Shown in pieces: positions 1,627-47,701 of a stretch of 64,000 bases of DNA. The notes beneath the pieces are model-generated. The model was not told the DNA's origin. It worked only from the letters and a program-made list of their open reading frames with translations, and made no database searches. The number at the start of each line of letters is the position of its first letter. Position 1 is the first letter of the stretch. This stretch comes from Deltaproteobacteria bacterium. GTDB taxonomy: Bacteria > Desulfobacterota > GWC2-55-46 > DRME01. Made by a program: the position numbers and the translations under genes. The stretch is taken from assembly GCA_011375175.1 (NCBI GenBank), contig DRME01000063.1, forward strand, positions 12,182-76,181, written 5' to 3'.

Positions 1627-2391
1627 ATGAAGATACGGCACACGATAGACCTCATTTTCGTCCTCACGCACAAGGAGATGAAGATACGCTACAAGAGCAG
1701 CGTCTTCGGCTATGTCTGGTCCATCGCCCAGCCCCTGGCCTTCGCCTTCGTCTTCTACGTGGCCTTCAAGATAGTGATGCGCATCGACATGGAGGACTAC
1801 GCCCTCTTCCTCATCGCCGGGCTCTTTCCGTGGCAGTGGTTCAACAACTCGGTCACGGCGGCGCCAATGGTCTTTCTCGGCAACGCATCCATAATAAAGA
1901 AGGTCAACTTTCCGCGCAATGTCACTATTCTTGCTACGGTTTTGCAGGACATGATACACTTTGTGCTCTCCATACCGGTGCTCGTTCTCTTCATCTATAT
2001 CTACGGGCACAGCCCGGCGTACCTGGCCTGGCTCTACGGGATACCGCTTCTGCTGGCCGTGCAGCTTCTCATGGTCTACGGCGTTGCCGTGCTCATCGCG
2101 TCGATAAACCTCTTCTTCCGCGACCTCGAGAGACTTACCATCATATTGATGACCTTCATGTTCTACTTTACGCCCGTGCTCTACTCGGTGGAGATGATCC
2201 CGCGGGAGTATCTCCACCTTGTGAACCTCAACCCTGTGGCCCCGCTCATGATAAGCTGGCGCGAGCTCATCCTCCACGGCGCCCTCGACCCGGCCTCGTT
2301 CTTCATAAGCCTCGGCTACGCCGTGCTCTTCTTCCTCATAGGCCACGGCGTCTACCGCAGCCTCGCCTGGAGATTCGCGGAGGTGCTGTGA
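1627..2391 (+). CDS. wzm: ABC-2 type polysaccharide/teichoic acid export permease (Wzm/TagG/KpsM family)
   Basis: 254 aa with six predicted TM segments. It has an ABC-2 membrane domain pattern (…FPWQWFNNSV…) and is followed by an overlapping ATPase gene. Confidence 0.8.
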   Translation: MKIRHTIDLIFVLTHKEMKIRYKSSVFGYVWSIAQPLAFAFVFYVAFKIVMRIDMEDYALFLIAGLFPWQWFNNSVTAAPMVFLGNASIIKKVNFPRNVTILATVLQDMIHFVLSIPVLVLFIYIYGHSPAYLAWLYGIPLLLAVQLLMVYGVAVLIASINLFFRDLERLTIILMTFMFYFTPVLYSVEMIPREYLHLVNLNPVAPLMISWRELILHGALDPASFFISLGYAVLFFLIGHGVYRSLAWRFAEVL

Positions 2392-3158
2392 GCGAGGCCG
2401 TAATCGTCTTCGACGACGTCTGCAAGAGCTATCCCCTTTACCACCACATCACGGGGGGGCTCAAGCGTTTCCTCTTCAGCCTGCCCTCCAGTCTTTCGCA
2501 GTTGAAGAAGACCCGCTACGAGGCGCTGCGCCACATAAGCTTCGAGGTGGCCCGCGGCGAGTCCTTCGGCATAATAGGGCGCAACGGAGCGGGCAAGAGC
2601 ACGACCCTGGGGCTCATAGCCGGCGTGCTCAGGCCGACGAGCGGCACGGTGACCGTAAGGCTTCGCACCTCCCCCATGCTCGAGCTCGGCGCGGGCTTCC
2701 ATCCCGAACTCACCGGCATCGAGAACATCGTGCTCAACGGGGTCCTCCTCGGGATGACCAGGGCGGCCGTCATGGAGAAGATGGAGGAGATAATCGAGTT
2801 CTCCGAGCTCGGCGAGTTCATCGACCAGCCCATACGGGTCTATTCCAGCGGCATGCTCGCAAAGCTCGGCTTCTCGGTCATAGCACACCTGGACCCGGAG
2901 ATACTCTTGATAGACGAGATACTGGCCGTGGGGGACGTGAACTTCCAGAAAAAGTGCATCGACAAGATGTCGCAGTTCAGGCAAAAGGGTGTTACAATGT
3001 TTTTCGTCTCCCACTCCATGGCCGACGTGGAGAAAATATGCGACCGCGTACTGTGGCTCGAAGAGCGGACCATGCGCATGATCGGCCCGGCCGGCGAAGT
3101 GACCCGCGCCTACACCGAGTACTTCAACGCAGGTGAAGATGAGAAGAAAGAGGCTTGA
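2388..3158 (+). CDS. wzt: ABC transporter ATP-binding protein (Wzt/TagH/KpsT family)
   Basis: GTG start overlaps the wzm stop. It has Walker A GRNGAGKST, an ABC signature YSSGM and Walker B LLIDEILAVGD. The first ~186 aa of the track ORF 1830–3158 is an out-of-frame overlap with wzm. Confidence 0.85.
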   Translation: MSEAVIVFDDVCKSYPLYHHITGGLKRFLFSLPSSLSQLKKTRYEALRHISFEVARGESFGIIGRNGAGKSTTLGLIAGVLRPTSGTVTVRLRTSPMLELGAGFHPELTGIENIVLNGVLLGMTRAAVMEKMEEIIEFSELGEFIDQPIRVYSSGMLAKLGFSVIAHLDPEILLIDEILAVGDVNFQKKCIDKMSQFRQKGVTMFFVSHSMADVEKICDRVLWLEERTMRMIGPAGEVTRAYTEYFNAGEDEKKEA

Positions 3159-5295
3159 CATCGGCATAGTCATACCGGAACTCGCCAAGTACGGGGGGGC
3201 CGAGCGTCTGCTCATCGAGTGCGTAAGGAGGTGGCAGACGTGCCACGACATCACCATCTACGCCACCAGGTTCGACCGCGACATCCTGCGCGAGCACGGC
3301 GTAAGGCGCAGCGTGGAGCTCGTGCGCATCTCGCCCTACTACGAGGGGCCCCACTCCATACTCCTCAACTGCGTGCTCTTGCCCAAGATATGGGAGCAGG
3401 AGATAGGCGTCCACGACATCTACCATACCCACCTGTGGTCGACCCATCTCCTCGACCTCCATCCCTCGGTCTGGTATCCCCACGAGCCGCTGCGCATACT
3501 CCACGACCTGCGCTACAACCAGTCCATGGAGGGGCTCGTCAACAACCTGGTGCGCAACATCCACATCTACCCCAAGTACAACTACGACAAGGTGACCGAC
3601 GTCCTCTTCGAGGCCTACCTCAACTCCATGGACGCCTACGACAAGCTCGGAAAGCCCGACAGGATAGTGGCCAACAGCCGCTACACGGCGTCGTACCTCG
3701 AGGAGGTCTACCAGAGGAAGGTCGACGACGTCGTGTATCCGGGCGTCAACGTCGACGACTTCATATACACGCCTCCCGAAGAGAACATCGTCCTCACCAT
3801 AGGCCAGCTCTGGCCCCACAAGAGGATAAGGCTCATCATAGAGGCCGTCAAGCACGTGGAGGACGTGCAGCTCTATGTCGTGGGCAACGGTCCCGACGCG
3901 GCGAAGCTGAAGAAGACGGCCCGCAGCCTCGGTGTCTCGGACCGGGTCTTCTTCCTTCACGGCCTTACGAACCTGGAGGTGCAGATACTCTTCTCGCGGT
4001 GCATGGCCGTCGTCTTCACGCCCATCAAGGAGCCCTTCGGCATAGTGCCGCTCGAGGCCATGGCCGCGGGCAAGCCCCTCATCGGTGTGAACGAGGGCGG
4101 CTTCACCGAGGTCGTGGACGACAGTTGCGCCTTTCTCGTGCCTCCGCAGCCGCTGGCCATAGCCGAGAGGATCCGATACCTGCGCGACAACAAGGACGTG
4201 GCCGCGAAGATGGGCCTTGCGGGGCTTGAGAAGGTCAGGGCCTACAACTGGGACCGCACGGCCGAGGAGCTCATCGCCATAATAGAGGACACCCATGCCC
4301 GGTGGGAGAAGAGCCACAGGAAGCGGGCCTCCCGCAGGGGAGGAGACCGGACGCTCTTCGGCGCCCAGTACTACTGCTGGTACGGCGACGGCGTGGGGTC
4401 GGCCCACTGGAACGACAATCTCCAGTTCGGGGGGGTGACGGACATGCCCGAACTGGGCTACTACGCCTCGTCCCACGGCACCGTCATAGAAGAGCACCTG
4501 AGGACCCTCGAGGCAGCGGGCCTGGACTTCCTCATCCTCAACCTCCACCTCGACTCCGACGGCGTCAACGCATACGAGCTCGCCGTCATCGAAAACATCT
4601 TCAGCGTGGCCGAAGAGATCGGCTCGAAGCTGCGCCTGGCCGTGCAGCTCTGTTTCTACGACGCCAGGAAAAAGGACGCCGTGACGGTCCTCAAGCTCAT
4701 CGGCAAGGTGCTCTCCCGCAGGGAGCACTACCTGCGCATGAGCGGCAAGCCCGTGCTCTTCTTCTTCTGGACGGGCGTGCTCGACGGCAACAAGTCCTTC
4801 ATCTCCACGGTGGACGAGTACACGGAAGGGTTCATCCGCGTGGCCACATCCCTGCGGATGTATTCGAGGAAGACGGAGCACAAGAAGACCTTCGGCCTCT
4901 TCGACGGCTTTACGCTCTTTTCGCCCCTTGAGATGTGCGCGCCCGAGAAGTGGACGAAGCTGTGGCAGGAGGCCTACGACAACTGCGACGCCGGGGCCAT
5001 GGGACTTCAGATCATCACCGTCTCTCCAGGCTACGACGATTCGCACCTCAAGGACCCCCAGCGCCAGGGCAACATCTACAGGACCGTGGACCGCGACGGC
5101 GGGGCGACCTACCGGAAGATGCTCGACTTCACGCTCTCGCAGCAGAGGCGTCCCCACATGGTGGTGGTCTCCACCTTCAACGAGTACCATGAGAACACGC
5201 ATATCGAGGCGAGCGTGAACAACGGCTCCAGGTACATGGACATGACCAGGGCATTCATTTCCCAGGGAAGGAAACGATGGAGAAAAAGTCGATAA
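3133..5295 (+). CDS. Bifunctional glycosyltransferase: N-terminal GT4 (group-1) domain plus C-terminal GH99/WbsX-like domain
   Basis: N-terminal ~390 aa has the GT4 C-domain motifs (…FTPIKEPFGIVPLEAMAAGKPLIG…). The C-terminal ~330 aa has a GH99-like signature (YYCWYGDG…HWN…GYYASSHGTVIEEHLRTLEAAGLDF…FNEYHE). It is paralogous to 13415–15557. Confidence 0.7.
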   Translation: MKMRRKRLDIGIVIPELAKYGGAERLLIECVRRWQTCHDITIYATRFDRDILREHGVRRSVELVRISPYYEGPHSILLNCVLLPKIWEQEIGVHDIYHTHLWSTHLLDLHPSVWYPHEPLRILHDLRYNQSMEGLVNNLVRNIHIYPKYNYDKVTDVLFEAYLNSMDAYDKLGKPDRIVANSRYTASYLEEVYQRKVDDVVYPGVNVDDFIYTPPEENIVLTIGQLWPHKRIRLIIEAVKHVEDVQLYVVGNGPDAAKLKKTARSLGVSDRVFFLHGLTNLEVQILFSRCMAVVFTPIKEPFGIVPLEAMAAGKPLIGVNEGGFTEVVDDSCAFLVPPQPLAIAERIRYLRDNKDVAAKMGLAGLEKVRAYNWDRTAEELIAIIEDTHARWEKSHRKRASRRGGDRTLFGAQYYCWYGDGVGSAHWNDNLQFGGVTDMPELGYYASSHGTVIEEHLRTLEAAGLDFLILNLHLDSDGVNAYELAVIENIFSVAEEIGSKLRLAVQLCFYDARKKDAVTVLKLIGKVLSRREHYLRMSGKPVLFFFWTGVLDGNKSFISTVDEYTEGFIRVATSLRMYSRKTEHKKTFGLFDGFTLFSPLEMCAPEKWTKLWQEAYDNCDAGAMGLQIITVSPGYDDSHLKDPQRQGNIYRTVDRDGGATYRKMLDFTLSQQRRPHMVVVSTFNEYHENTHIEASVNNGSRYMDMTRAFISQGRKRWRKSR

Positions 5296-7001
5296 GGGGC
5301 CGCGGCGGGCCCGCACCGCTCTTTGCCAGGGTCGACAGGGAGAGGCTCGACCTGTCGAGGGCCAAGAGCGCTTCGTTCAATATCTCCTTTCCGGCGGCGG
5401 CGTCGGCGGTGGGCTGCGACGAGTACTTCGTGGTCGTCGACGTCTACTCGGCCCACAGCCACGTTCACCCCGAAGGACACGTAGGCTGGTGGCGCTACGA
5501 CCTCGGCGGCTGGGACGACATAAACGTCAAGGTCTCGCGGGCGGGGCGGCGGCTTTCCGTCTCTTTCAAGGGCTCCGGCAGGAGCGTGGACCAGTGGATA
5601 AACGACGACTGTCCCCGCGCCGGCGACGACGTGCTCGCCGTATCCGTCGTCATCCGCAGCAGCGAAACGGACGCCATCGAGTTCGAGGACAGGATATTCC
5701 TATATACCGACAGGGCGGCGCTCAGGCGCTCCGAGCAGTTGAGGCGCGAGGCCGCGGCCGTACCCGCCTCAATAAAAAGGCTGCCGGCGCGGTGGTTCTG
5801 CTGGCCCAGGGACGTGAAGGTCCATATCGTCGCCTGCAACATAAGGAGCCTCGACGCCGTCGGCAACTTCACCTTCGACCTCTACCGCTTCTTCAGCAGC
5901 CAGGGCATAGGGTGCCGCATATACGCCCAGTCCTTCGACCCCGCGCTGCGCGGCCTCATAAGCCACGTCTGCGAGCTCCTCTACAGCGCCGGCGAGCGGG
6001 ACCTGGTGATATTCAACTTCTCCATATACGACGAGTACCTGCGCGCCATAGCCGCTCTGCCGTGCCGCAAGATCGTCTACTACCACAACATCACGCCGCC
6101 TTCCATGTTCCAGATATACGACGCCGAGTACGCCCAGTACTGCTCGAAGGCTTACGGCCAGTTCAGGATATTGAAGGACTTCGACGTGGTAATGGTCAAC
6201 TCGCTGATGTCGAAACGGGAGTTCCTCGAGCTCGTGGAGCGCGAGCCCGACGAGAGCGAAGCGTCCGGCGAGGCCGAAGGGTTCGAGGACGCCGATGGGC
6301 AAGACGACCCGGCAGGGACGCCGGCCGGGGGCAGCCGTGACGGCGCCCCGCCCGTGCTCGTCGCCCCGCCCTTCCTCGCCGGACCGCGCAAGTGGGAGAC
6401 GGTGGAAGAGGAAGATGTGGAGATACCGCAGGCCTCGGAACTCCTGCTCTACGTGGGCAGGATAGCGCCCCACAAGAAGATCGAGGACCTGCTCCATCTC
6501 TACGACGAGTACAGGCGGCTCAGCCGCGCATCGAGGCTCCTCATCGTGGGCGCGGCCAGCTTCAAGGGCTACGGCAACTACATAAACTACCTCCTCGAAA
6601 AGGAGTTCCCGAGGATAAAGGAGAGGATACACATCTACAACGACGTGAGCGACGGCCAGCTCAAGCGTCTCTACTCGGCCGCCACGGCCTACGTCTCCAT
6701 GAGCGAGCACGAGGGATACTGCATCCCCGTGGTCGAGGCCATGGCCTTCGGAAAGCCTGTCTTCGCCTACGCCCAGGAGGCGGTACGCGAGACGCTGGGG
6801 GGCACGGGCAGGGTCTTCCATGAGAAGGACTTTCCCGCCATAGCCCGGGACATACACGGCGTGCTGACAGACGGCTCCGAGCTTGAGAAGATGCTGGCGG
6901 CCCAGGGGCGGAGGCTTGCAAGGATAGAGCGGGAAGCAGACGGCACGACGCTGTGGCGCGCCGTGGAGGCGGCTCTCTTCGGCCATGCGGGTGATCTTTA
7001 A
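5277..7001 (+). CDS. Glycosyltransferase, GT4-like C-terminal domain with a ~370-aa N-terminal region of unknown function
   Basis: C-terminus has …LYVGRIAPHKKIEDLL…EHEGYCIPVVEAMAFGKPVFAY…, the GT-B C-domain EX7E motif. The N-terminal half has no recognisable motif. It overlaps the upstream gene by 19 nt. Confidence 0.65.
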   Translation: MEKKSIRGRGGPAPLFARVDRERLDLSRAKSASFNISFPAAASAVGCDEYFVVVDVYSAHSHVHPEGHVGWWRYDLGGWDDINVKVSRAGRRLSVSFKGSGRSVDQWINDDCPRAGDDVLAVSVVIRSSETDAIEFEDRIFLYTDRAALRRSEQLRREAAAVPASIKRLPARWFCWPRDVKVHIVACNIRSLDAVGNFTFDLYRFFSSQGIGCRIYAQSFDPALRGLISHVCELLYSAGERDLVIFNFSIYDEYLRAIAALPCRKIVYYHNITPPSMFQIYDAEYAQYCSKAYGQFRILKDFDVVMVNSLMSKREFLELVEREPDESEASGEAEGFEDADGQDDPAGTPAGGSRDGAPPVLVAPPFLAGPRKWETVEEEDVEIPQASELLLYVGRIAPHKKIEDLLHLYDEYRRLSRASRLLIVGAASFKGYGNYINYLLEKEFPRIKERIHIYNDVSDGQLKRLYSAATAYVSMSEHEGYCIPVVEAMAFGKPVFAYAQEAVRETLGGTGRVFHEKDFPAIARDIHGVLTDGSELEKMLAAQGRRLARIEREADGTTLWRAVEAALFGHAGDL

Positions 7002-7995
7002 CACCTACCCCGTCGCCTTCGACTGTCCCGGCGGCGGAGAGATACAGCTCTGCAGCACGAGGAGCGCCGTCGAGGCCGCGGGGGTGGAGGTGCTGCTCTA
7101 CGACCAGTGGCGTCCCCGCCTCGACGACGCCGACCTGGTCCACTATTTCTCGGTCCAGGGCGGCTCCATGAACTTCTGCTCCCATGTGAAGCGCCGCGGG
7201 CTGCCTCTTGTCATCTCCCCCATCATATGGCTCGGCCGCGACAGGGACTCCTATCCCCTCGGCGAGATAAGGGACCTGCTCCACCTTGCGGACATGATCC
7301 TCCCGAACTCGGCGGCCGAGGCCGGGCTCCTGAGGGAGTTCTTTTCCCTGCCCGAGGAGAAGTTCACCGTAACGCACAACGGCGTTGACCGCTCCTTTGC
7401 CGCAGAGGTTGCGCCCGCGCTCTTCAGGGAGCGTTTCGGCATCGAAGGCCCCTTCGTCTTCAACGCAGCCAACGTGGAGCCCCGAAAAAACCAGCTCTCG
7501 CTGGTAAGGGCGCTCAAGGGCACGGGCATGAGGCTCGTAATCGCCGGGGGGGTGCGTGACCGCGCCTACTTCGAGGCATGCATGGCCGAGGGCGGGGGGT
7601 TCACCGCCTACGTGGGCCGCATCGCCCACGAAGACGACCTGCTCAAGAGCGCCTACGGGGGCTGCGAGCTCTTCGTGCTGCCGAGCCTCCTGGAGACGCC
7701 GGGGCTGTCGGCGCTCGAGGCGGCCGCCGCAGGGGCGAGGCTCGTTGTGACGGCCGTGGGGAGCGCAAGGGAGTACTTCGGCGACGAGGCCGTCTACGTG
7801 GACCCCTATGACGTGGACGATATAAGAAGAGGGATCGGGGAGGGGCTGGCGAGGGAGCGCGGCGGCGCTCTCAGGCGTCTCGTGACGGAGCGCTACACCT
7901 GGGAGAATACGGCCGCCGAGGTCGTCTCGGCCTATGAGGCCGTGCTGGGGCGCCGCCGCGAAGCGGGCGGCGGGGCTGGTGAGGCGGCGTGCTGA
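6985..7995 (+). CDS. Glycosyltransferase family 4 (group 1)
   Basis: 336 aa. It has …FVLPSLLETPGLSALEAAAAGARLVVT… and the GT4 architecture. Confidence 0.75.
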   Translation: MRVIFNTYPVAFDCPGGGEIQLCSTRSAVEAAGVEVLLYDQWRPRLDDADLVHYFSVQGGSMNFCSHVKRRGLPLVISPIIWLGRDRDSYPLGEIRDLLHLADMILPNSAAEAGLLREFFSLPEEKFTVTHNGVDRSFAAEVAPALFRERFGIEGPFVFNAANVEPRKNQLSLVRALKGTGMRLVIAGGVRDRAYFEACMAEGGGFTAYVGRIAHEDDLLKSAYGGCELFVLPSLLETPGLSALEAAAAGARLVVTAVGSAREYFGDEAVYVDPYDVDDIRRGIGEGLARERGGALRRLVTERYTWENTAAEVVSAYEAVLGRRREAGGGAGEAAC

Positions 7996-10900
7996 GGGAG
8001 TTCGTCGGTCCATATCTCGTCTATCCCCTCACCGAGCGCATCGAGGGCAGGCGCATCCGCCCGAAGCTCAGGGTGCTCGAGAGGGAGTGGGCGCTTCCCT
8101 TCGAGCAGAGGCTTGCGCTCCGGCGCCGGGCCCTCGGCAGGATCCTCGAGCTTGCGGGCCGCACGGTCCCCTACTACCGGGACCTCTTCAGGGCCAGGGG
8201 GTTCGACCCCTCGAAGGTCGAGAAGGACCCGGCCCGGCTCGAGGAGCTCCCGTACCTCACAAAGGAGATAATAGCCGAGCAGGGGGAGAGGCTCATAAGC
8301 GGGAACCACCGGCGTGAGGACCTCCACGAACGCAGGACCGGCGGCTCCACCGGCGCTTCCACAGTCGTCTACTATTCGCAGGAGGCGCTGGACTGGACGG
8401 CGGCGGCCAACCTCTTCGTGCTGCGCTGGACGGGCAGGGCCCCCCACATGCGCGAGGCCCGCCTGTCGAGCCGTTTTCCCGAGACCTTTCCCCTGCGGGA
8501 CAGGGTGAGGGAGTGGATAAAGTGCCTGGCGCTCAACAGGGTGAACATAACGACCGACTCCTTTGACGACGACGCCATGGCGCGGCTCTGGGAGGAGCTC
8601 AGGGCGGCGAGGCCCTACCTCGTGCAGGGCCATCCGTCGACCTTCTACGCCCTTGCCCGCTACCTCGAGAGGGAGGGGATCGAGGGCGGGGGGGTGCTGG
8701 AGGTCTTCGAGTCCACCGGCGAAGTCCTTGACAGGAGGAAACGGCAGGCTATAGAATCGATCCTCGGCTGCCGCGTCTTCGACCGCTACGGCGACGCCGA
8801 GTTCGGTGTCGTGGCCTACGAGACGGGCGGCGGCCGGGGACTGAAGGTGCTCGACGCCATGGTCTGGCCCGAGACGGCGCCCGTGGAAGGGGGACGCCCC
8901 GGCAAGGACGCGCCGGGGGAAGAGCCGGGGGAAGAGATCGTCCTTACGGGCCTCACGAACGACGCCATGCCCCTTGTGAGGTATCGCACGGGGGACCTCG
9001 GCATACTCGAAGAGCGCGGGGACGGCTTCTATCTCGACTCCATAGCGGGCCGTGTGCACGACAGGGTGAGGATCGGCGCCAAAAGCTACCCGACCCACTA
9101 CATACAGGACGTGCTCGACAGGCTCGGGCGGATCCACGACTTCCAGATCGAGCTCTGCGACGGCGGGGCGCCCCTTCTGCGGCTCGTGGTGCCCGACGAG
9201 GCGGCGAGACCGGCCATAGAGGAGCGCATCAGGAAGTGGTGGGGAAGGGCCGTGGAGATCGAGTTCTGCGACTTCGCGGGACTCAGGCGGGTGGGCTGGC
9301 GCGGCAAGTTCAGGTACGTGGTCGGCGGCGGGGCGGACGCAGCCTCCCCGCCTTGTCAAGGGGAAGAGGGTATCATGAGGCAAGAGGCAGCGATTGAAAC
9401 GGACGCCCCGGAAGGGGGTGCAGGCTCCGGCCGCGGGCGGCGGCCCCTGTCCGTCTCCCACTCAAGCGGCTGGTACGCCCCTGAAAACGACGGCGTTCGG
9501 GAGTTCCGCTGGTCTTCTCTCGACGCCACCTTCACCATCGACCGGCTGCCGGCTCCCCGGCCTCCCTTCCTGATGATCTACGCCGGCTCGCCGCCGACAG
9601 GCTCCCGCCGAAGGCTCACCCTCTCTGGCGAGGGCGGAGAGGCCTCGCTCGAGGTGAAGCCTGGCTGGCGCTGGTACGTCTTCCCCCTCGACGGCACCAT
9701 CGGGGCCGGCAGGAAGGGGCGCATCGCCGTGGACGTCCCCTTCAGGGCGCCGGGCGACGACAGGACCCTGGGCCTGATGGTCTCGCGCATCGAGTGGTGC
9801 GACGACTTCCACATGCTCTTTGTAAACGACGAGATATCATCGGCCGTAAGACCGGACGTGGAGCTCGTCGAGGGATGGCACGGGCTCGAGGACAGCGGCG
9901 AGAGGCCTTTCCGCTGGTGCGCCGCCGAGGCGACCGTGAGGATAAACCGTCCGCTCGATGGCTGCAAGCCTTTCGTCGTGGTGCGCGCCGGTCTTCCCGA
10001 AGGGTCGGCGCCGAGGCGTATGAGCTTCAGGGGGCGGGCCGGAGAGATGTCCTTCCAGTGCCGGCCGGGCTGGCGCTACTATATCTTTCCCCTGCGGGAT
10101 GTCATGGGCGGCGACAACCTCGTGACCCTGACGGTCGACGGCGCGCAGGTCGACGGGGCCGACGGGCGCACCCTCGGCGTGATGGTGAGCTCCGTGGAGC
10201 TCGCTTCGAGTTACGGCATGCTCCACGTAAACGACGAGGCCTCGGCCGCCGGGCCGCCGGAGGTGGAGCTCCTCGACGGCTGGCGCGCGCTCGAAGAGAC
10301 CGGCCCGTTCCGCTTCCGCTGGTGCGCCGCCGAGGCGACGGGCCGCATAAACGGCCGGTCCGGCGGGGAGGGAGGGCGTCTCGTCGTGCGCTGCGCGCTT
10401 CCCCGTGGAGCCGCTTCGGCCCGCCTCGTCCTCTCCGGCGCCCGCGGGAGCCGCGGTGCGGAACTTCTCGACGGCTGGCGCTTCTATTCCTTCCCCCTCA
10501 AAGAGACGGTGGGAGACGACGGCCGCTTCACCCTCACTGTCGATGGCGGCTGCGTCGTCGGAGACGACGGCGCAAGGCTCGGCGTCATGGTCAGCTCCGT
10601 CGAGCTCGCCGACGATGGGGCCATGGAGGTCTACGACGAGCGCAGGGAGTTCAAAGACGCCGTCCTCTACGAGCTGCGAACGGAAGAGGGGGTTAAGGGG
10701 GCCGTAACCGTCGGCGGCGCGCCGGGCGGAGGGAAGAAGGTCTACCTCGACGTCACCTACGTGGCCGACCCGAGGCGGGGGGGACGCGCGGCCTTCAAGG
10801 CCGGGGGCTTCCACTGCTCGCCGAGGGTGCTCGGCGGGGGGCTGCGCTCCTTTTCCATCGAGGTGCCCGGCGCCGCGCTCGCCGAAGACCGCGCGCTGGC

Positions 10901-18413: not shown

Positions 18414-18623
18414 TGAGGAAACTCTGATTTATTACGCTGGGGGAAACTTTCTGTAGAAAGTTTCCCCCAGACCCCCTTCAAAGACTTTCAATACGAGGTG
18501 GTTTCCCCCTGTTTTGCCAAGCAAAACAGGGGGAAACCACCTCGCATTAAAAGTTTTTGGAGGGAGTCTGAGGGAACCTTTTTACAAAAAGGTTCCCTCA
18601 GTGCAATAAATCGGAGTCTCCAT
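18414..18623. repeat. Composite palindromic repeat, copy 2, MITE-like with ~23-bp terminal inverted repeats
   Basis: Left end is aggaaactctgatttattacgctg. Right end is cagtgcaataaatcggagtctcc. These are imperfect inverted repeats. The internal hairpins are identical to copy 1. Confidence 0.8.
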
Positions 18624-41137: not shown

Positions 41138-41143
41138 GGTCGC

Positions 41144-41947
41144 TTGCCGGGCGGGGCGGCTGCGTTGAACTCCGCCGAAGCTCAGCGGCGGGCGTCCGTT
41201 GCCGACCTCTCGGTGGTCGTGCCGGCCTTCAACGAGCAGGAGCGCATAGCGACGACGCTGGAGCGCATGGTCTCCTATCTCGAGTCCCGGGGCATGGACT
41301 TCGAGGTCGTGGTGGTGAACGACGGGAGCACGGACGCCACGGCCGACATCGTCTCCCGCGCGGCGGACGACAACGGCTCCATAAGGCTCATCGACAACGA
41401 GGGCAACCGGGGCAAGGGCTTTTCGGTGAGGCGCGGGGTGCTCGAGGCCAGGGCCCCCTTCATCCTCTTCTCCGACGCCGACCTCTCAACGCCCATCGAG
41501 GAGATCGAGAAGCTCATGCCCTGCTTCGACGAAGGCTACGACGTGGTCATAGGTTCGCGCAGCCTGCCGGAGTCGAGGATAGTGGTCCATCAGCCCTTCT
41601 ACCGCGAGACCATGGGCCGCGTCTTCAACCTCATAGTCCGCCTGCTGCTGCTCGGCGGCTACAGCGACACCCAGTGCGGCTTCAAGTGCTTCAGGCGCGA
41701 GGCCGCCCGCGAGATATTCGGGCGCTCGGTGCTCGACGGCTTCGCCTTCGACGTGGAGGTCCTCTACCTTGCCGAAAGACTCGGCTACAGCGTGAAGGAG
41801 GTCCCCATAGACTGGTACAACTCGCCCAACACGAGGGTGAGCGCCCTGACCGACTCGGTCAAGATGTTCATGGAAGTGGTCAAGATAAGACTGCGCGACT
41901 ACGACGTCGGGGCCGGCCAGGGTCCGGGGCGCCGGCGCGCCCGATAG
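41144..41947 (+). CDS. GT2 glycosyltransferase, polyprenyl-phosphate glycosyltransferase-like (DPM1/GtrB-like)
   Basis: LSVVVPAFNEQERI…VVVVNDGSTDAT…FSDADLSTPIEEIEKL and …DTQCGFKCF…; a soluble GT-A. Confidence 0.8.
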   Translation: MPGGAAALNSAEAQRRASVADLSVVVPAFNEQERIATTLERMVSYLESRGMDFEVVVVNDGSTDATADIVSRAADDNGSIRLIDNEGNRGKGFSVRRGVLEARAPFILFSDADLSTPIEEIEKLMPCFDEGYDVVIGSRSLPESRIVVHQPFYRETMGRVFNLIVRLLLLGGYSDTQCGFKCFRREAAREIFGRSVLDGFAFDVEVLYLAERLGYSVKEVPIDWYNSPNTRVSALTDSVKMFMEVVKIRLRDYDVGAGQGPGRRRAR

Positions 41948-41976: not shown

Positions 41977-43629
41977 ATGATGGGATGGGTCCCGGCCGGG
42001 GGACGGCGGCTGACGCAGGTCCTCATGGCTCTTCTGGCGGCGGGCGGGCTCTTCGTCTCTTCCTGCACCACCGCCGACGTGGGTGACGAGGGCGAGGGCG
42101 GCCGCCTCGCCGCCGGTTCGGCGGCGGAGATGGAGCGCCGCGAGCGCAGGGCCCTCGGCCTCGACGACGGCCGCCGGGTCGCGGACGAGGGTGAGGCGGA
42201 CCGCGGGGGGGCAGGCGGGCGGAAGAGCCGCACCGCCGCTCCCCGGAGGCCGGCGCCGCCCTTCAGGGGGGTGGAGACCTCGGGCGAGTATCGGGGCCAC
42301 AGGTGGTTCATCGACAAGGACCACATGCTCTGGTGGGACGGCCGCCCCTACGTCCCCTTCGGAGTCAACCTCTTCGCCAGGACGAGGCGCGAGGTCGACA
42401 TCGCCATGGAGCTGGGGCTCAGGGAGTTCGCCATCTGGATAGGCGACTTCCCGGCCGCAGGCTACGAGCGAAGGGCCGCCGCCATGCTGCGCACCGTCGA
42501 CGACCTGACAAGCTACATAACCGAGAGGGGCGGCACCTACGTCGTCATCCTCGAGCAGGTCTTCACCAGCGACTATACGGGCAGCCGCGGCGACGAGATG
42601 ACCTTCGTCACCATGAGCGAACTCACCGGCAGGCCCCGCTACTTCAGGAAAAAGGCCTTCGGCGGAGGCCCCATACCCCCGCTCCACAAGGAGAATATCC
42701 GCCGCATGACCTTCGACTACTTCAGGATGTTCGGCAAGGCCGTGGCAAAGGACGGGCTCAGGGGCCTGTGTTACCTCAACGAGCTTTCCACAAACATAGG
42801 GCTCGGCGGCGAGTGCCTCGAGTCCTCGGCCAGGGCCGGCGAGATGAAGGACGAGGGTTATCCCGACCTGCGCGACGAGCCGGTCCTGCTCGAAGCCTAC
42901 CGCCGCTGGCTGGCCGGGCGCTTCGGCTCCGTCGGGGAGCTCAACGCGCGGCTCGGCACGGACTACGGCGGCTTCGACGAGGTGGAGTGGGTGACGCCCG
43001 CCGACATCACCTATTCGCGCCATCCCTGCCGCAGCCTCCGGGTGCGCGACGACATACAGAACCGCTTCTGGGTCGACTTCTGGGCCGGCCAGTACGTCTC
43101 CTACGCCCGCAAGGCGAGGGAGCTCATCGGCGATGTGCCCTTCTTCTCGAAGGCCCTGGACTACGAGTTCCACCGCTACTCGCTGGAAGAGGCCATAGTG
43201 ACGGCCGGCACCGACGGCATCGGCCACGACATCTACAGGGTCGTCAACACCACGGAGATCGCCGAGCGCGAGGAACTCGGCCTCCCGGCCTCTCTCGACC
43301 TCGACTTCGAGGCCATGCTCGCCGCGGCGCAGAACGCCTCGGGCCGCACAAAGCTCTTCTGGGTGCCCGAGCACGGCTCGGGCGATGCCGAGAGGATGCT
43401 CGTCTTCGGCAGCCGCAGGGAGCTGGAGGAGTTTCTACTCGACATGGTGGAACGGGGGGCCAAGGGCTTTTTCACATACCAGCCCGTGGACCCGGCCACG
43501 GTTCGCGGCGGGGAGCTCAAGGAGCTCGTGGCGAGGTCCCTTCGCTGGCACGCCGAACTCCGCGGGTCGGTGATCGGCGAGGCGACGAGGCGCTCGGAGA
43601 AGGCGGGGGCGGCAGGTCGTGAGAAGTGA
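41977..43629 (+). CDS. Hypothetical secreted lipoprotein, possible glycan-processing enzyme
   Basis: ATG preceded by GGGAGG. Signal plus lipobox is LLAAGGLFVSSC. The ~550-aa protein has no motif I can assign. The track ORF's N-terminal extension overlaps the GT2 gene out of frame. Confidence 0.55.
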   Translation: MMGWVPAGGRRLTQVLMALLAAGGLFVSSCTTADVGDEGEGGRLAAGSAAEMERRERRALGLDDGRRVADEGEADRGGAGGRKSRTAAPRRPAPPFRGVETSGEYRGHRWFIDKDHMLWWDGRPYVPFGVNLFARTRREVDIAMELGLREFAIWIGDFPAAGYERRAAAMLRTVDDLTSYITERGGTYVVILEQVFTSDYTGSRGDEMTFVTMSELTGRPRYFRKKAFGGGPIPPLHKENIRRMTFDYFRMFGKAVAKDGLRGLCYLNELSTNIGLGGECLESSARAGEMKDEGYPDLRDEPVLLEAYRRWLAGRFGSVGELNARLGTDYGGFDEVEWVTPADITYSRHPCRSLRVRDDIQNRFWVDFWAGQYVSYARKARELIGDVPFFSKALDYEFHRYSLEEAIVTAGTDGIGHDIYRVVNTTEIAEREELGLPASLDLDFEAMLAAAQNASGRTKLFWVPEHGSGDAERMLVFGSRRELEEFLLDMVERGAKGFFTYQPVDPATVRGGELKELVARSLRWHAELRGSVIGEATRRSEKAGAAGREK

Positions 43630-44998
43630 CCTCCTCCACGACGGCGGGCTCGTGAGAAGCCTTGCGCTCACCTCGGCGGCCGGGGTGGTCCTCGGGGGGA
43701 TCGTGCTGGCGGCCGGCCCGCTTGCGCCTTTCGTGGTCATCGGCGGCGCGCTGGCGGCGGCCTCGTTCCTCGTGCCGCAGCTCTGGCTCTTCATCACCGT
43801 CGTCTTCTCGCTCGGCGTGCCGGGGCTGCCGCTCAAGAAACCGCTCTTCGCCGTGCTGCTCGTCGTCGCCGCCCCGGCGCTCGTCTCGCGCATCAGGCCC
43901 TACACGGGCGAAGGCCGCGTCGTCTATGCCGCCGGCTTCCTCGCGGCCCTTCTCGTTTCGTTCGTGGCCGGCACGCACGGAAGAGACGTGGTGGTCACGG
44001 CCGAGTCCGTGGCCCCGGTGGTGCTCTTCTTCGTGGTCCTCACCTGCATCGACTCGCTCGAGCGCGTCTACAGGCTCGTGGGCGCCGTAATCTTAAGCGG
44101 TGTCCTCCTCACTCTGTTCCGCTTGACCAACTCGCCGCTGCTGCTCGGCTGGGCCGTGGACCACGTGGCCCTCGGCGCCGTCCTCCTCAAGAGCTTCATC
44201 CTGAGCTCCTTTCTGCTGCTGAGCGGCGCCACCGGGCGCAGGGAGGCGCTCTTTGCCGCGAGCTTCTTCATATGCGTGGGCCTCATGCTGGCGCTCAGCA
44301 AGACCATGTTCATCACCCTGGCCATCCTCCTCGCCGTGGGACTCTTTTTCACGGAGCTGCGCCGCAAGTTCCTCTACTTCATCGTCATACTCTCCTTCGT
44401 CATGCTCGTGCTCCCTCTTTTCATAAGCCCCAGGTTCTTCCTCATCCCCCTCGACGTGGCGCCCACGGGACACCCGGTGCTCTACATGCTCACCGACGCC
44501 ATGTCGAATATAGAGAATCCCGAGGGCACGACCCTTGGCGGCAGGCTCACGGACCTCAAGCGCGGCTTGAACTACCTGGAGGAGCATCCAGGCACGCTCC
44601 TTACCGGTGTGGGCGTAGGCATGGCGACCAAGGCCGTCTACTACTCGCACCTGGCCATAGGGGAGACGGTCTCCCACGGTTTCTTCACGAGCGGCTACCT
44701 GACCATGCTCATCGAGATCGGGACGATGGGGCTTGTCTTCTTTCTGCTGCTGATAGTGACGTCGCTTCGCGATCTCCTGAAACTCATGGCCCGTTACAGG
44801 CGCACGGGACGCACAAGGGAGCTCTATCTCTGCCTCGCCCTCTTCATGATCGTCGTGGGCGTACTCATCGAGGCCCTCGTGGGACACGCGGTCATAGATT
44901 ACATCCTGTGGATATCCTTCGCCCTTACGTCCATACTCAAGCGGCTTGACGAGGGGGGTGGAGAGGGCGGCCCCGAGGCCGCCGGCCGTCATGGATAG
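43619..44998 (+). CDS. O-antigen ligase/polymerase family membrane protein (Wzy-like)
   Basis: 459 aa with ~10–12 TM helices and a periplasmic loop (…HPVLYMLTDAMSNIENPEGTTLGGRLTDLKRGLNYLEEHPGTLLTGVGVG…), as in the Wzy_C/O-antigen ligase family. Confidence 0.65.
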   Translation: MRSDLLHDGGLVRSLALTSAAGVVLGGIVLAAGPLAPFVVIGGALAAASFLVPQLWLFITVVFSLGVPGLPLKKPLFAVLLVVAAPALVSRIRPYTGEGRVVYAAGFLAALLVSFVAGTHGRDVVVTAESVAPVVLFFVVLTCIDSLERVYRLVGAVILSGVLLTLFRLTNSPLLLGWAVDHVALGAVLLKSFILSSFLLLSGATGRREALFAASFFICVGLMLALSKTMFITLAILLAVGLFFTELRRKFLYFIVILSFVMLVLPLFISPRFFLIPLDVAPTGHPVLYMLTDAMSNIENPEGTTLGGRLTDLKRGLNYLEEHPGTLLTGVGVGMATKAVYYSHLAIGETVSHGFFTSGYLTMLIEIGTMGLVFFLLLIVTSLRDLLKLMARYRRTGRTRELYLCLALFMIVVGVLIEALVGHAVIDYILWISFALTSILKRLDEGGGEGGPEAAGRHG

Positions 44999-46535
44999 CC
45001 TGCGCGTCGACGAAAGGGAGCCGCCCCTGGCCGTCGCGGTTGTCGCGGCGGCCTCTATGCTCTGCGCGGTCCTCATCCTCCGGGACCTGCCGGCAAGGAG
45101 CCTCTGGACCGACGAGTTCACGAGCATCGATGTCGCCTCGCTTCCGCTGCGCGAGATCGCGGCCTGGGCGGCCGGCGACGTCCATCCCCCGCTCTATTAC
45201 GTCCTCCTCCACTTCTGGAGGGAGCTCGCAGGAGCGGGCGAGACTGCGGCCCGCATATTCTCGGTGCTGCCGGCCGCGGCCACGGTCCCCCTCGTCTACC
45301 TCTCGGCGCGGCATGTGGCGGGCTGGAGGGTGGGGCTTCTGACCGCCGTGATGCTGGCCGTCTCGCCGCTTCTCGTGCTGCGCGGCGGCATGGTGCGCTG
45401 GTACACACTGGCCCTCGCTCTCTCGTGGGCGTCCATACTCTTTTTCCTGCGGGCCGTCGAGGGGGGAGGGCTGCGCCGCTGGGCGCTCTACGCGGCGGCC
45501 ACGACGCTGCTCATATACACCCACTACCTGCCGGGGAGCATCGTCATCGGCCAGGGCCTCTATCTCCTCATCGAGCACCGCCGGGACCGGCGTCTTGCGC
45601 GAAACTTCTTCCTCGCCCTCTCGGCCGTGGCGCTTTTGTACCTGCCGCAGCTCGGCGTGCTGGCAAGTCAGCTTCTCTACGCGCCGCACCACGGCTCGCC
45701 GGCGCCCATGGCCTACGGCCTCAAGGGCGCCGTGGTGAAGGCGGGCTACACGCTCTACGCCTTCGCCCTCGGCGAGACCGTCCTGCCCTGGGACCTGAAG
45801 GTCACGGCCGCCGCTGCCGCCGCCTTCGCCGCCGCCGCGCTCGCCGGTCTCGTCGGGGCCTGGAGAGTGCGCGGGGTCCCGGCCTTCGTCCTCTGCTTTC
45901 TCATCGTGCCTCTCGTCTTCCTCATACTCCTTACGGCCACGGTCTTTCCGTCCGAATCGTTCCACCTCTTTCCGGGTCTTCTGCTCTTTGTCCTCCCAAC
46001 CTTCTACCTGACGGCGGCCATCGGCCTCACGGTCCTTCCGGCAAGGCTCTCGGCGGTCTCTTTCGCCGTCATCGTGGCGGCCTGGTGCTACTCGCTGGGC
46101 AACCTCTATGCGAAGCGGGGCTACATAAATCCGAATTATGTGATACCATGGAGAGAGGCGGCCGCCGTGCTCGAAGAGCGGGTGAGGCCCGGCGAGCTCG
46201 TCATAGCCACGGACAGGTCGCTCTATTATTACCGCCGGGGCGTGGACATGGTGCTTCTCGACGAGACGAAACGGAAGGGCGCGGTGGAGGAGACGGTGGA
46301 GAGGAGCGCTCCGCCCGCGCTGTGGCTCCAGGTGCGAGATCGGGGCAACCCGGAGGATACGCGCCACATCGAGACCTTTCGCCGCAGCCTCTCCGGCCGC
46401 TACAGACTCGCCTCGGCCCTGGGCTTCGTGGCCGAGGACCCGATGACGGTGAGCTTCAAGGAGCGCCTTCTCCGGCGTCCCGTACCGAAGTACAAACTCA
46501 TGATCTACCGCTATGTAAAAAAAGAAGAAGGATGA
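44989..46535 (+). CDS. GT-C family glycosyltransferase (ArnT/PMT-like, GT39/GT83-like)
   Basis: Polytopic. It has LWTDEFTS (a DE motif in the first extracytoplasmic loop) and HPPLYYVLLHFW. It has ~11 TM helices and a soluble C-terminal domain. Confidence 0.6.
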
Positions 46536-47701
46536 GAGAGAGAGAGGGACCGGCATACTGGCTGGTGAACATTGCGATGGTCCTGGCCGTCGTGGCGGCG
46601 GCGCTTGTGCTCTTCGAGTGGTGGGCCAGGGCCACGGGACGATTCGTGCCGGAGGACAAGAGCCGCATAAGGGCCGAGGAGAGGCTCTACTTCCTCAAGG
46701 ACGACACGCTCGGCTGGATAGGAAAGCCCAAGGCCTCCTACAAGGTCAGGGGCACGCGGGAGGACACGGTGGTGCTCAACAACTCGCTGGGCCTGCGCGA
46801 CCGCGAGTTCGCCGCCGACAGGCCCGCCGGCACCACACGCATAGCCCTGCTCGGCGACTCCTTCATCTGGGGGTTCGGCACCGAGAGGGCCGAGGACCGC
46901 TTCGGCGACGTGCTCGAGGAGCTCCTGCGCCGCCGGGGCCTAAAGGTCGAGGTCTACAACTTCGCCATAGCCGGCTGGGGCACGGACCAGCAGTATCTCG
47001 CCTACAGGCGTATAGTCTCCGCCTACAACCCCGATCTCGTCATCCTGGCCTATTACGTCAACGACGCCCTCGACAACGTGACGCGCCAGGGCAAGCCCTA
47101 CTTCGAGATCGTCGGCGACGGGCTCGAGCTGCGCAACGTGCCCGTGAGCCGCGAGGGCGAGCAGGAGTGGGCCGAGGAGGGGACCATGGGGGGGCTCAAG
47201 ACCTTCCTCGGCACGAGGTCGTACACCTACCGGCTCCTCCGGGACCTGACAAAGCGCAGCGCCCTCTTCTTCAACACCATGGTCTCGCTGGGACTGCTCG
47301 ACGACCCGTTCGAGGGGCGCGACCCCGCCTACCTGCGCAGGCTCGCCTCGATGCTCATAAGGCGTCTGGCCGAAGAGGTGAAAAAGGACGGGGCCGAGCT
47401 CATGCTCCTCTTCATACCCGACAGGGCCGAGGTGGAGGGAGAGCCCATGGACTACGTGATGCGCAGGATCGTGGAGGTGAAGGACGGCCTGGCCGGCGAA
47501 GACTTCGGCGTGCCGTCGCTGGACCTCACGCCGCTGCTCGCCGCCGAGGCGGCCCGCTCGCAGCGGCCTCTGTACCAGCGCTTCGACGGCCGCCACTGGA
47601 CCGTTGAAGGAAACCGCTTCGTGGCGCGGGCCGTGGCGGCGTTCCTCGAGGAGCGCCGCCTCGCGCCCTTTTCCCGCAGGGAAAGTTTTCCGCCTAAATA
47701 A
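46532..47701 (+). CDS. SGNH/GDSL-family hydrolase (putative polysaccharide O-acetyl esterase/acyltransferase), membrane-anchored
   Basis: ATGA overlaps the upstream stop. It has an N-terminal TM, LLGDSFIWGFG (the GDS block), …GWGTDQQ… and DLVILAYYVND. Confidence 0.65.
   Translation: MREREGPAYWLVNIAMVLAVVAAALVLFEWWARATGRFVPEDKSRIRAEERLYFLKDDTLGWIGKPKASYKVRGTREDTVVLNNSLGLRDREFAADRPAGTTRIALLGDSFIWGFGTERAEDRFGDVLEELLRRRGLKVEVYNFAIAGWGTDQQYLAYRRIVSAYNPDLVILAYYVNDALDNVTRQGKPYFEIVGDGLELRNVPVSREGEQEWAEEGTMGGLKTFLGTRSYTYRLLRDLTKRSALFFNTMVSLGLLDDPFEGRDPAYLRRLASMLIRRLAEEVKKDGAELMLLFIPDRAEVEGEPMDYVMRRIVEVKDGLAGEDFGVPSLDLTPLLAAEAARSQRPLYQRFDGRHWTVEGNRFVARAVAAFLEERRLAPFSRRESFPPK

Follow-up and report, generated by a model that had tools for sequence, protein, structure and literature searches.

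A 64-kb stretch of DNA from an uncultured hydrothermal-vent deltaproteobacterium (the window) contains an uninterrupted run of ~33 glycan genes at 1627-47701 (~46 kb), bounded by thyX-rpmE and ffh, in which an ABC-transporter-type export system and a Wza/Wzc/Wzy-type machinery occur together. An earlier note on this DNA proposed either that two glycans are made or that the parts form a hybrid pathway, and the question is how this mixture should be read. Our preferred reading, with a probability of roughly 0.58, is that at least three ordinary envelope-glycan systems are neighbors in one chromosomal glycan super-locus and do not make up a single hybrid pathway.

Extent, flanks and repeats of the island

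Genes were delimited by GC3 frame analysis and their families assigned by Pfam and NCBIfam scans. Every gene named in the earlier note was recovered at its coordinates, and a NeuD/PglD-type acetyltransferase, four radical-SAM genes and a 1365-aa fusion protein can be added to the list. The housekeeping genes reported on both sides are also present: thyX and rpmE on the left, with prfA and murA further out, and ffh, a KH-protein gene, rimM, trmD and rplS on the right. The dispersed repeats described inside the island are three copies of a palindromic element of ~160-200 nt (no strand assigned):

1189..1347: REP/MITE-like repeat in intergenic DNA at the island's left edge (families D5, I1, I6, I8)
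18417..18621: repeat between the ABC operon and the GT4-PGT pair (family I2)
21267..21450: third copy, inverted relative to 18417-18621 (families I5, I7, I8, I13, I14)

The first matches the copy at 18420-18578 with 95% identity, and the second has 101-nt arms that are 85% complementary. Two independent assemblies break at this second repeat, at position 18.5 kb, where contiguity is backed by an 89-nt overlap with copy-specific variants.

Direct copies of the repeat flank the ABC operon and inverted copies flank the GT4-PGT pair, an arrangement that would suit a recently acquired, strain-variable genomic island whose mixed content reflects piecemeal horizontal acquisition. So would the state of the site in L004, which is the nearest of the genomes that show both flanks: there, 6 kb of housekeeping genes and no glycan locus lie between murA-prfA-rpmE and ffh. 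However, at 65% Ffh identity that difference may be ancient, and the nearest available genomes (65-70% Ffh identity) are too distant for judging locus variability; an AlgX-like counterpart, 24% identical, also lies directly upstream of ffh in L001. Related repeat modules occur outside the island (53692-53837 and 63523-63852), no tRNA, integrase or transposase was found for it, and the comparison of codon usage with the flanks that the earlier note had called for revealed no difference: island GC3 is 0.80-0.91, and both GC3 and RSCU distance equal those of the flanking housekeeping genes. The case for an accessory or variable locus is therefore weak, and we consider recent acquisition unlikely.

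The ABC-transporter operon

From wzm to 18301 there is a 13-gene operon, with junctions that overlap or are ≤10 nt apart, which includes the following features:

1627..2391 (+): Wzm, ABC-2 permease (PF01061, ABC2_membrane, E 5.5e-12; 5-6 TM segments)
2388..3158 (+): Wzt, ABC ATPase, 256 aa (PF00005, ABC_tran; TagH/Wzt-like, 195-229 bits)
3139..5295 (+): fusion of a GT4 glycosyltransferase and a GH99/WbsX-like domain (Glycos_transf_1 E 3.9e-33; Glyco_hydro_99 E 5.7e-15)
5277..7001 (+): GT4 glycosyltransferase (Pfam scan)
6985..7995 (+): GT4 glycosyltransferase (Pfam scan)
7989..12086 (+): 1365-aa fusion of a CapK/PaaK-like adenylate-forming domain, repeats and a C-terminal radical-SAM domain
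12083..13405 (+): SAM methyltransferase; its N-terminal domain and the 1365-aa protein's repeats are homologous
13415-14494 and 14505-15557 (+): tandem GH99/WbsX-like paralogues, probable glycosyltransferases (families D3/D4/D8, 72-77% nt identity)
15561..17153 (+): 530-aa protein, function not assigned (faint polysaccharide-deacetylase-like signal, PF01522 E 0.3, not significant)
17150..18301 (+): TuaH-like GT4 glycosyltransferase, closing the operon (Pfam/NCBIfam scans)

Against NCBIfam, Wzm scores best with Wzm/RfbD and KpsM but reaches the cutoff of neither. In the 1365-aa fusion, whose full architecture was found in this MAG only, the adenylate-forming domain (aa 1-447; PaaK structures E 1e-11; DVU_1553-family ligase 84 bits) is followed by three ~135-aa repeats and the radical-SAM domain, and a CX3CX2C motif is present.

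The arrangement, with Wzm/Wzt ahead of cytoplasmic glycosyltransferases and a methyltransferase, is that of other ABC-dependent loci (E. coli O8/O9a, Klebsiella O2a, G. stearothermophilus slg), and the slg cluster likewise has a WbaP-type PGT and a Wzy_C-family protein close by (PMC2943079). Unlike in those O-antigen and S-layer loci, Wzt lacks the C-terminal carbohydrate-binding domain (Wzt_C), for which its 256-aa length leaves no space, nucleotide-sugar genes are absent, and the operon contains the unique CapK-like/repeat/radical-SAM fusion and three GH99/WbsX-like proteins. We propose that this operon directs an ABC-transporter-dependent polymer: the cytoplasmic GT4 and WbsX-like transferases would assemble the chain, carried on a polyprenyl lipid, the methyltransferase and the CapK-like/radical-SAM fusion would modify it, and Wzm/Wzt would export it. 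The operon, which is directly followed by a 400-nt gap containing a repeat element, has no initiating transferase of its own and may draw on the WbaP-type enzyme encoded 400 nt downstream; such sharing would tie the ABC and Wzc systems together at least at initiation.

A conserved Wzc cassette and its GT2/GT-C neighbors

The rest of the island is listed here in two parts. The first extends from 18701 to 37675:

18701..19864 (+): GT4 glycosyltransferase
19857..21272 (+): WbaP-type polyprenyl-phosphate hexose-1-phosphate transferase, PGT (Bac_transf 242 bits, CoA_binding_3)
21460..22335 (-): SAM methyltransferase
22332..22991 (-): NeuD/PglD/VioB-family sugar acetyltransferase (Hexapep; TIGR03570 160.3 bits, cutoff 160.8)
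22991..23944 (-): ArnC/PgfS-like GT2, two C-terminal TM helices (full-length ArnC match, 172 bits, below cutoff)
23988..25994 (-): GT-C-fold membrane glycosyltransferase with a C-terminal carbohydrate-binding-like beta-sandwich (family without a Pfam model)
26158-27342, 27396-28433 and 28433-29476 (+): three tandem radical-SAM paralogues (families D1/D7)
29483..30517 (+): PgfS/ArnC-like GT2, two C-terminal TM helices (PgfS 279 bits, full length, below cutoff)
30429..31439 (+): membrane GT2, Glyco_trans_2_3/GT21 type
31450..32967 (+): B12-binding radical-SAM enzyme
32983..35412 (+): 809-aa YfhO/DUF6541-like membrane protein, 11-14 TM segments
35750..37675 (+): secreted fn3/PKD surface protein, Ser/Thr-rich linker, CFI-box-CTERM anchor (NF041770 110 bits, cutoff 40)

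The second contains the export and polymerization genes:

38127..38918 (+): Wza, short (class-3-type) OPX protein (Poly_export and one SLBB; signal peptide ending ...LAAGC), probably a lipoprotein
38957..41137 (+): Wzc, fusion of a PCP-2a co-polymerase and a BY-kinase (Wzz and P-loop; TIGR01007 219 bits, cutoff 108)
41165..41947 (+): small soluble GT2 resembling Dol-P-hexose/PpgS synthases
41977..43629 (+): 550-aa weakly glycoside-hydrolase-like protein (GH42 E 0.0075; lipobox VSSC), probably a lipoprotein
43619..44998 (+): Wzy_C-family 11-TM protein, polymerase or ligase (41.9 bits, cutoff 31.7)
44946..46535 (+): PMT_2-family GT-C glycosyltransferase (59.6 bits, cutoff 26.1)
46532..47701 (+): SGNH/GDSL, AlgX-like protein (glycan O-acetylation or esterase)

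The acetyltransferase gene was absent from the filtered ORF list and was recovered by GC3 phase, and the starts at 22991..23944 and 35750..37675 are those called in the ENA assembly. A weak SPASM-type signal is seen only in the second radical-SAM paralogue (27396-28433).

A cassette comprising Wza, Wzc, the small GT2, the secreted GH-like protein, Wzy_C, PMT_2, the WbaP-type PGT, the membrane GT2 and the B12-radical-SAM enzyme recurs in five other organisms at 24-59% identity. Its Wza-Wzc-GT2 unit is 43-59% identical in L082, L086, L087/L099, L088, L097 and L098; the small GT2 always adjoins Wzc (51-59% identity in L082, L086, L087, L097 and L099). A PGT lies directly upstream of this unit in four of the homologous loci (L087, L088, L097 and L099), and the island PGT (TIGR03025 459 bits, cutoff 296) is 37-39% identical to these, as the membrane GT2 is 29-34% identical to the GT2 preceding each of them. 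Downstream, GH-like and Wzy_C proteins follow in L087/L099, L097 and L098, their orthology resting on 24-28% identity plus position (GH-like counterparts in L097 and L098, 24-28%; Wzy_C of L097, 26%). PMT_2 genes are found further on in L097 and L098, and L097 also has the B12-radical-SAM gene (28% identity over 451 aa, E 8e-54). In all homologous loci, wzm/wzt are absent within 10 kb.

Wzc has Walker motifs and a C-terminal YEYYYQYYY cluster. A KpsE-type PCP-3 was ruled out (TIGR01010 33 bits, cutoff 437). The PCP-2a type with a BY-kinase is associated with Wzy-dependent systems. Group 2 capsule export (KpsMTED) similarly combines an ABC-2 exporter, a PCP and an OPX protein in one region, but there the PCP is KpsE and the OPX protein has the KpsD GfcC module missing here; no KpsS/KpsC was detected in the region, and the ABC genes lie 35 kb from the PCP/OPX genes, in different operons.

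Gene content is also shared with Wzx/Wzy loci (E. coli group 1 capsule/colanic acid, P. aeruginosa psl, M. xanthus eps), which have a WbaP-type PGT, Wzy_C, OPX and a PCP-2a Wzc with Walker motifs and Tyr cluster. The periplasmic GH-like protein occupies the position of PslG in psl (PMC13434223), and the OPX protein, by the classes defined in PMC9603273, is of the same short type as Myxococcus EpsY/WzaX (PMC9601211, PMC9603273), with no beta-barrel partner recognized for it. The island differs from these loci in having no linked Wzx, in the small GT2 being invariably fused into the Wza-Wzc unit, and in the inclusion of PMT_2 GT-C and B12-radical-SAM genes in the conserved cassette. This Wzx/Wzy-type cassette, split here by insertions and with the SGNH protein at its end, would make a second, repeat-unit polymer that is polymerized in the periplasm and then exported through Wzc/OPX.

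Several genes of the island recall GT2/GT-C pairs such as ArnC/ArnT, GtrB/GtrC, S. mutans PgfS/PgfM and B. subtilis CsbB/YfhO. Two full-length ArnC/PgfS-like GT2s, of which that at 22991..23944 is predicted from its sequence to be of the polyprenyl-phosphate sugar synthase type, adjoin the GT-C-fold protein (by structure) and the YfhO/DUF6541-like protein (DUF6541 E 8.7e-6, YfhO E 3.6e-3, both below cutoff), a probable GT-C; the short Dol-P-hexose-synthase-like GT2 is three genes from the PMT_2 protein. In contrast to the known pairs, all NCBIfam scores are below equivalog cutoffs, there is no GtrA-type small flippase, one GT-C has a Wzt-CBD-like beta-sandwich, and radical-SAM genes are interleaved. 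The best reading is of two or three polyprenyl-phosphate-sugar GT2/GT-C decoration modules, with a Ser/Thr-rich surface protein beside them. As we infer their products and acceptors, the ArnC/PgfS-like enzymes would make polyprenyl-phosphate monosaccharides, which periplasmic GT-C enzymes would use to decorate polymers or the adjacent fn3/PKD protein, a candidate glycosylation target.

The missing flippase and the number of pathways

The absence of a MOP flippase from the window, as first reported, is confirmed: no multi-TM protein in the 64 kb has a MOP-family match at E≤5, and a six-frame hydropathy scan of the same 64 kb left no multi-TM ORF lacking assignment, so that the proposed search for a cryptic flippase revealed none. 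The only large membrane protein otherwise unassigned, that at 23988..25994, is confidently modeled as a GT-C glycosyltransferase and not a flippase. Nor is there a wzx in the 3 kb upstream of the window or the 10 kb downstream.

Within the 46 kb, wzm/wzt are the only candidate translocators of lipid-linked glycans. This would fit a true hybrid in which Wzm/Wzt replaced a lost Wzx and move Und-PP-linked material to the periplasm, where the polymer is finished and exported by Wzy_C, Wzc, the short OPX protein and GT-C enzymes that draw on polyprenyl-phosphate sugars; codon usage indicates that all parts have long been resident together. However, nothing positively couples wzm/wzt to the Wzc cassette. 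The ABC genes lie 35 kb away from Wza/Wzc at the start of an operon that is separate and self-contained, and the homologous cassettes are never paired with an ABC transporter. The L097 cassette, which alone among the homologous loci can be followed this far downstream (the others stop at contig edges), ends in a canonical MOP flippase (Polysacc_synt_3/Polysacc_synt/MatE). A missing linked wzx is also common and has a precedent in related bacteria: distances between the genes of a single Wzx/Wzy pathway reach >1 Mbp in Myxococcus (PMC9603273). We therefore regard a hybrid as quite improbable, and of the two options first proposed it is the making of two or more glycans that is favored.

The mixture is not in itself a sign of a hybrid, because WbaP, Wzm/Wzt and a Wzy_C enzyme without Wzx have been described together in G. 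stearothermophilus S-layer glycosylation (slg), with a methyltransferase (PMC2943079), and ABC-dependent pathways, too, make use of OPX and PCP proteins (PMC9603273). Those precedents, the proximity of the PGT to the ABC operon and the surface protein with its Ser/Thr-rich linker would also accommodate just one ABC-dependent pathway, of the type that makes Geobacillus S-layer glycans or LPS. WbaP would then initiate, GT4/WbsX-like enzymes would build the whole polymer in the cytoplasm, methylation would cap the chain, Wzm/Wzt would export it, Wza/Wzc would serve only export or regulation, and Wzy_C would be a ligase or O-oligosaccharyltransferase acting on lipid A-core or the fn3/PKD protein. 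Against this, the comparative evidence assigns the PGT and Wzy_C to the other cassette: their homologs travel with Wza-Wzc, in L097 with a MOP flippase too, and never with wzm/wzt, and Wzc is a BY-kinase PCP-2a and not KpsE-type. A single pathway of this kind seems to us doubtful at best.

We return, then, to a super-locus of separate systems, on the assumption that the genome either encodes the cassette's Wzx at another site or no longer has one. The families of the genes, their order, their conservation and the fold are observed directly, whereas the acceptor of each enzyme, the products and the location of the flippase are inferences. Because the L097 cassette carries the flippase that is missing here, the island probably represents neighboring pathways and not a new form of hybrid export.

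Gene content and layout of the glycan block

The source of the window is the hydrothermal-vent metagenome PRJNA290104 (run SRR4453772), where it belongs to a 105-kb contig. The MAG, an NCBI TPA entry under the name "Deltaproteobacteria bacterium", has an Ffh that is only 65-70% identical to those of the nearest species-level genomes. Because the G+C content of the DNA is high (~65%), genes were called from third-position GC phase instead of ORF length, and were annotated with Pfam and NCBIfam. All of the genes named in the earlier note were recovered where it had placed them. Between positions 1627 and 47701, ~33 genes follow one another without a break, almost all of them glycan-related, and they can be divided into five units:

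Left flank: thyX, rpmE; prfA and murA farther out
1627-18301: unit 1, wzm, wzt and eleven further genes
18701-21272: unit 2, GT4 and WbaP-type transferase (PGT), with inverted repeat copies on both sides
21460-26021, minus strand: unit 3, GT-C protein, ArnC-like GT2, NeuD/PglD-type acetyltransferase, methyltransferase
26158-35412: unit 4, three tandem radical-SAM paralogues, PgfS-like GT2, membrane GT2, B12-radical-SAM enzyme, YfhO/DUF6541-like membrane protein
35750-37675, plus strand: fn3/PKD surface protein (Ser/Thr-rich linker, CFI-box-CTERM domain), between units 4 and 5
38127-47701: unit 5, short OPX, Wzc, small GT2, GH-like lipoprotein, Wzy_C protein, PMT_2 GT-C, SGNH/AlgX-like protein
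Right flank: ffh, KH protein, rimM, trmD, rplS, rnhB, polA

Within the window, Rfam gave no match, a search for terminators did no better than chance, and one for promoters returned 6 sites against 2.2 expected, barely above chance.

A glycosyltransferase operon is headed by genes for an ABC-2 permease and an ATPase of the Wzm/Wzt/TagGH/KpsMT type (PF01061, PF00005), the best NCBIfam matches being to Wzm/RfbD, KpsM, TagH and Wzt, all under equivalog cutoffs. wzm and wzt overlap each other and the first glycosyltransferase gene, and since each junction in unit 1 is either overlapping or ≤10 nt, the unit reads as one operon. Among its further genes are those for four GT4s, one of them fused to a GH99/WbsX-like domain, and for two GH99/WbsX-like paralogues; a methyltransferase, a fusion protein of 1365 aa and a 530-aa protein are also encoded. 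At 256 aa, Wzt consists of the NBD only; the C-terminal carbohydrate-binding domain, which recognizes the chain cap in the capped subtype only, is absent. The methyltransferase of the operon is a candidate chain terminator. In the 1365-aa protein (7989-12086, plus strand), an adenylate-forming domain like that of CapK/PaaK is joined to three ~135-aa repeats and a C-terminal radical-SAM domain; the methyltransferase encoded by the next gene has such repeats at its N-terminus as well. This full architecture was seen only in this MAG in a word-indexed search of 5.8 billion clusters; in relatives, such as that of Aliarcobacter butzleri, the ligase domain is instead joined to GT2 or GT4 domains.

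The ArnC/GtrB/PgfS-like GT2s align over their full length to ArnC (172 and 182 bits) and PgfS (279 bits), under equivalog cutoffs, and carry two C-terminal TM segments; a GT-C-fold membrane glycosyltransferase partner for such polyprenyl-P-sugar GT2s is present. Sequence searches of the PDB returned nothing for the 677-aa GT-C-fold protein (minus strand, ~23988-26021), the 809-aa YfhO/DUF6541-like protein (32983-35412), or the Wzy_C, PMT_2 and 550-aa GH-like proteins of unit 5. For the 677-aa protein an MSA-based structural model was used, a single-sequence AF2 model (pLDDT 40) being unusable. Pfam detected only C-terminal Ig-like domains in 43 members of its family, and hhalign revealed no relation between the family and the window's PMT_2 and YfhO-like proteins. 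This large GT-C family is not covered by any Pfam model, and it includes a Wzt-CBD-like domain.

The Thr/Ser-rich linker of the fn3/PKD surface protein is accompanied by a CFI-box-CTERM end, an 11-residue motif followed by a TM helix (NF041770, 110 bits); no publication on this domain turned up in literature searches. The B12-radical-SAM enzyme and the three tandem radical-SAM paralogues are encoded just upstream (26158-32967, plus strand), and one of the paralogues shows a weak SPASM signal; these enzymes may act on the surface protein or on sugars. A mycofactocin-like system was considered and rejected, as matches to MftC and MftF were well under cutoffs.

Flanks, repeats and assembly

With respect to horizontal acquisition, base composition and codon usage in the island (GC3 0.80-0.91 and RSCU distance) are like those of the flanking genes, and no tRNA, integrase or transposase is found at the island. 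On either side of the window, the adjoining genes (3 kb upstream, 10 kb downstream) have housekeeping or regulatory roles. In a compared genome with only 65% Ffh identity (L004), murA-prfA-rpmE and ffh are separated by 6 kb of housekeeping genes (rho, coaE, yfiH, rluD and others) with no glycan block, so the flanks are syntenic and the block is lineage-specific, which at this distance has no bearing on recent variability. In another compared genome (L001), an AlgX-like gene is also located directly upstream of ffh.

Palindromic intergenic repeats (REP/MITE-like) lie at the left border of the island (1189-1347) and at two places inside it, 18417-18621, in the 400-nt gap that follows unit 1, and 21267-21450; related modules lie outside at 53692-53837 and 63523-63852. 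The 17-kb ABC operon lies between direct copies and the GT4-PGT pair between inverted ones; recombination among the copies could lead to deletion or inversion of these blocks. Short-read assemblies are interrupted at these elements, as seen in two independent ones (ENA MEGAHIT and Logan), and 18.4-18.6 kb is spanned by the MAG contig alone. The two ENA contig ends share an 89-nt overlap that is identical to the window, also at six positions where this copy of the repeat differs from that at 1.2 kb; the join at 18.5 kb is therefore probably right, and a misassembly there is unlikely. We also note a tandem repeat at 52677-53071 (106-nt unit, 3.7 copies, 95% matches; no Rfam match) between a UPF0102 gene and a minus-strand 244-aa ORF.

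Wzx/Wzy-type components and the search for a flippase

The polyprenyl-phosphate hexose-1-P transferase that starts the chain in the Wzx/Wzy pathway is provided by the PGT (19857-21272; Bac_transf, 242 bits; TIGR03025, 459 bits, cutoff 296). Wzc (38957-41137) has Wzz and P-loop domains (TIGR01007, 219 bits, cutoff 108), and its Walker A, A' and B motifs and Tyr cluster mark it as a PCP-2a with a BY-kinase. With the OPX protein (38127-38918), a probable lipoprotein, it supplies the PCP-2a/BY-kinase and OPX that the pathway requires. The OPX is of the short class-3 type (~263 aa, with Poly_export and a single SLBB but no detected Wza_C helix); Myxococcus proteins of this type require a separate outer-membrane beta-barrel, and no gene for such a partner was recognized in the window. 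Group 2 capsule (Kps) systems, in contrast, have a KpsD-type class-2 OPX with a GfcC module, and the match to a KpsE-type PCP-3 was far below threshold (TIGR01010, 33 bits, cutoff 437). A PEP-CTERM/XrtA exopolysaccharide system was also rejected: there is no exosortase, and TIGR03027, TIGR03007, TIGR03018 and TIGR03013 were all under cutoffs. The Wzy_C domain of the protein encoded at 43619-44998 scores above the Pfam cutoff, in a family that also includes WaaL ligases and O-OTases, which are inseparable by sequence; a word-indexed search for its homologues returned only the protein itself.

The earlier note had recognized no Wzx, and this is right for the locus. None of the window's multi-TM proteins matched the MOP family (Polysacc_synt, Polysacc_synt_3, MurJ, MatE) at E≤5, and when all 64 kb were scanned for hydropathy in six frames, every ORF of ≥90 aa with ≥3 TM segments fell within the assigned genes, which by the same criterion rules out a small GtrA/ArnEF-type flippase in the window. 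The 550-aa protein encoded upstream of the Wzy_C gene (41977-43629) was rejected as a cryptic flippase, since it has a single N-terminal hydrophobic segment with a lipobox and is hence exported.

Homologous cassettes and the choice of reading

Wzc belongs to a distinct clade of homologues (46-61% identity), and the contexts of six of these and of one short metagenome contig were examined; only one of the four loci obtained by scanning metagenomes with Wzc was close, and that one was just 3.4 kb long. The trio of short OPX, BY-kinase Wzc and ~260-aa soluble GT2 (window 38127-41947) is kept at 43-59% identity across the homologous loci (L082, L086, L087/L099, L088, L097 and L098), which come from unrelated uncultured bacteria, with the small GT2 absent from L088 and L098 only. 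In a Scalinduaceae (Planctomycetota) MAG, the trio stands alone amid housekeeping genes. In L087/L099, L088 and L097, a WbaP-type PGT (37-39% identical to that of the window) is directly upstream of the trio and is itself preceded by a membrane GT2 (29-34% identical to the window gene at 30429-31439). A GH-like protein and a Wzy_C protein come next in L087/L099, L097 and L098, with PMT_2 genes further along in the latter two. L097 also encodes a B12-radical-SAM enzyme related to the window's (28% identity over 451 aa, E 8e-54) and, at its visible end, a MOP flippase of 443 aa that matches Polysacc_synt_3, Polysacc_synt and MatE; tblastn of this Wzx fragment against the window found no remnant. 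No wzm or wzt is located within 10 kb in any of these loci. L088 (3199-4263 and 12259-12582) has LPG_synthase_TM genes (MprF flippase-domain family) and a CapK-like ligase, with no MOP protein in view, and LPG_synthase_TM may be an alternative translocator of lipid-linked sugars in this cassette family.

Such conserved gene contexts decide between the two alternatives of the earlier note, two (or more) glycans or a hybrid ABC/Wzy pathway. Its observation of mixed ABC and Wzy-type machinery stands, and its interpretation is partly supported. The PGT, Wza, Wzc and Wzy-like protein are parts of a recurrent Wzx/Wzy-type cassette, here interrupted by other glycan modules and lacking a linked flippase. 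The most likely reading, to which we assign a probability of a little under 60%, is that several conventional pathways lie side by side and that the Wzx of the Wzy-type cassette is unlinked or lost. In a true hybrid, Wzx would be truly lost and the PGT/Wzy_C/BY-kinase Wzc/short OPX cassette would depend for inner-membrane substrate transfer on the neighboring Wzm/Wzt, or on GT-C periplasmic assembly from polyprenyl-phosphate monosaccharides. We regard such a hybrid as improbable. An apparent "hybrid" precedent in an Aeromonas paper was discarded, the word there meaning hybridisation. In a published scheme for Geobacillus S-layer glycosylation, a WbaP-type PGT, Wzm/Wzt, a Wzy_C transferase and methyl capping operate without Wzx (PMC2943079). 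Because of this scheme, and because OPX and PCP proteins work in Wzx/Wzy- and ABC-dependent routes alike and members of one pathway can be up to >1 Mbp apart in Myxococcus (PMC9603273), the mixture of parts is not very unusual.

For the side-by-side reading, the locus is a well-resolved case of uncultured vent bacteria stacking several envelope-glycan systems in one chromosomal stretch, and it cautions that co-location and an absent flippase are insufficient for inferring a hybrid pathway. The cassette of PGT, short OPX, Wzc, small GT2 (41165-41947 in the window), GH-like, Wzy_C and PMT_2 proteins could be defined as a family, occurring in at least five other uncultured metagenome organisms, one of them the Planctomycetota MAG; this cassette and the GT-C family may both be useful by-products. 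If the flippase is truly missing from the genome, the locus would be a natural test case for the substitution of an ABC transporter in a Wzy-type pathway.
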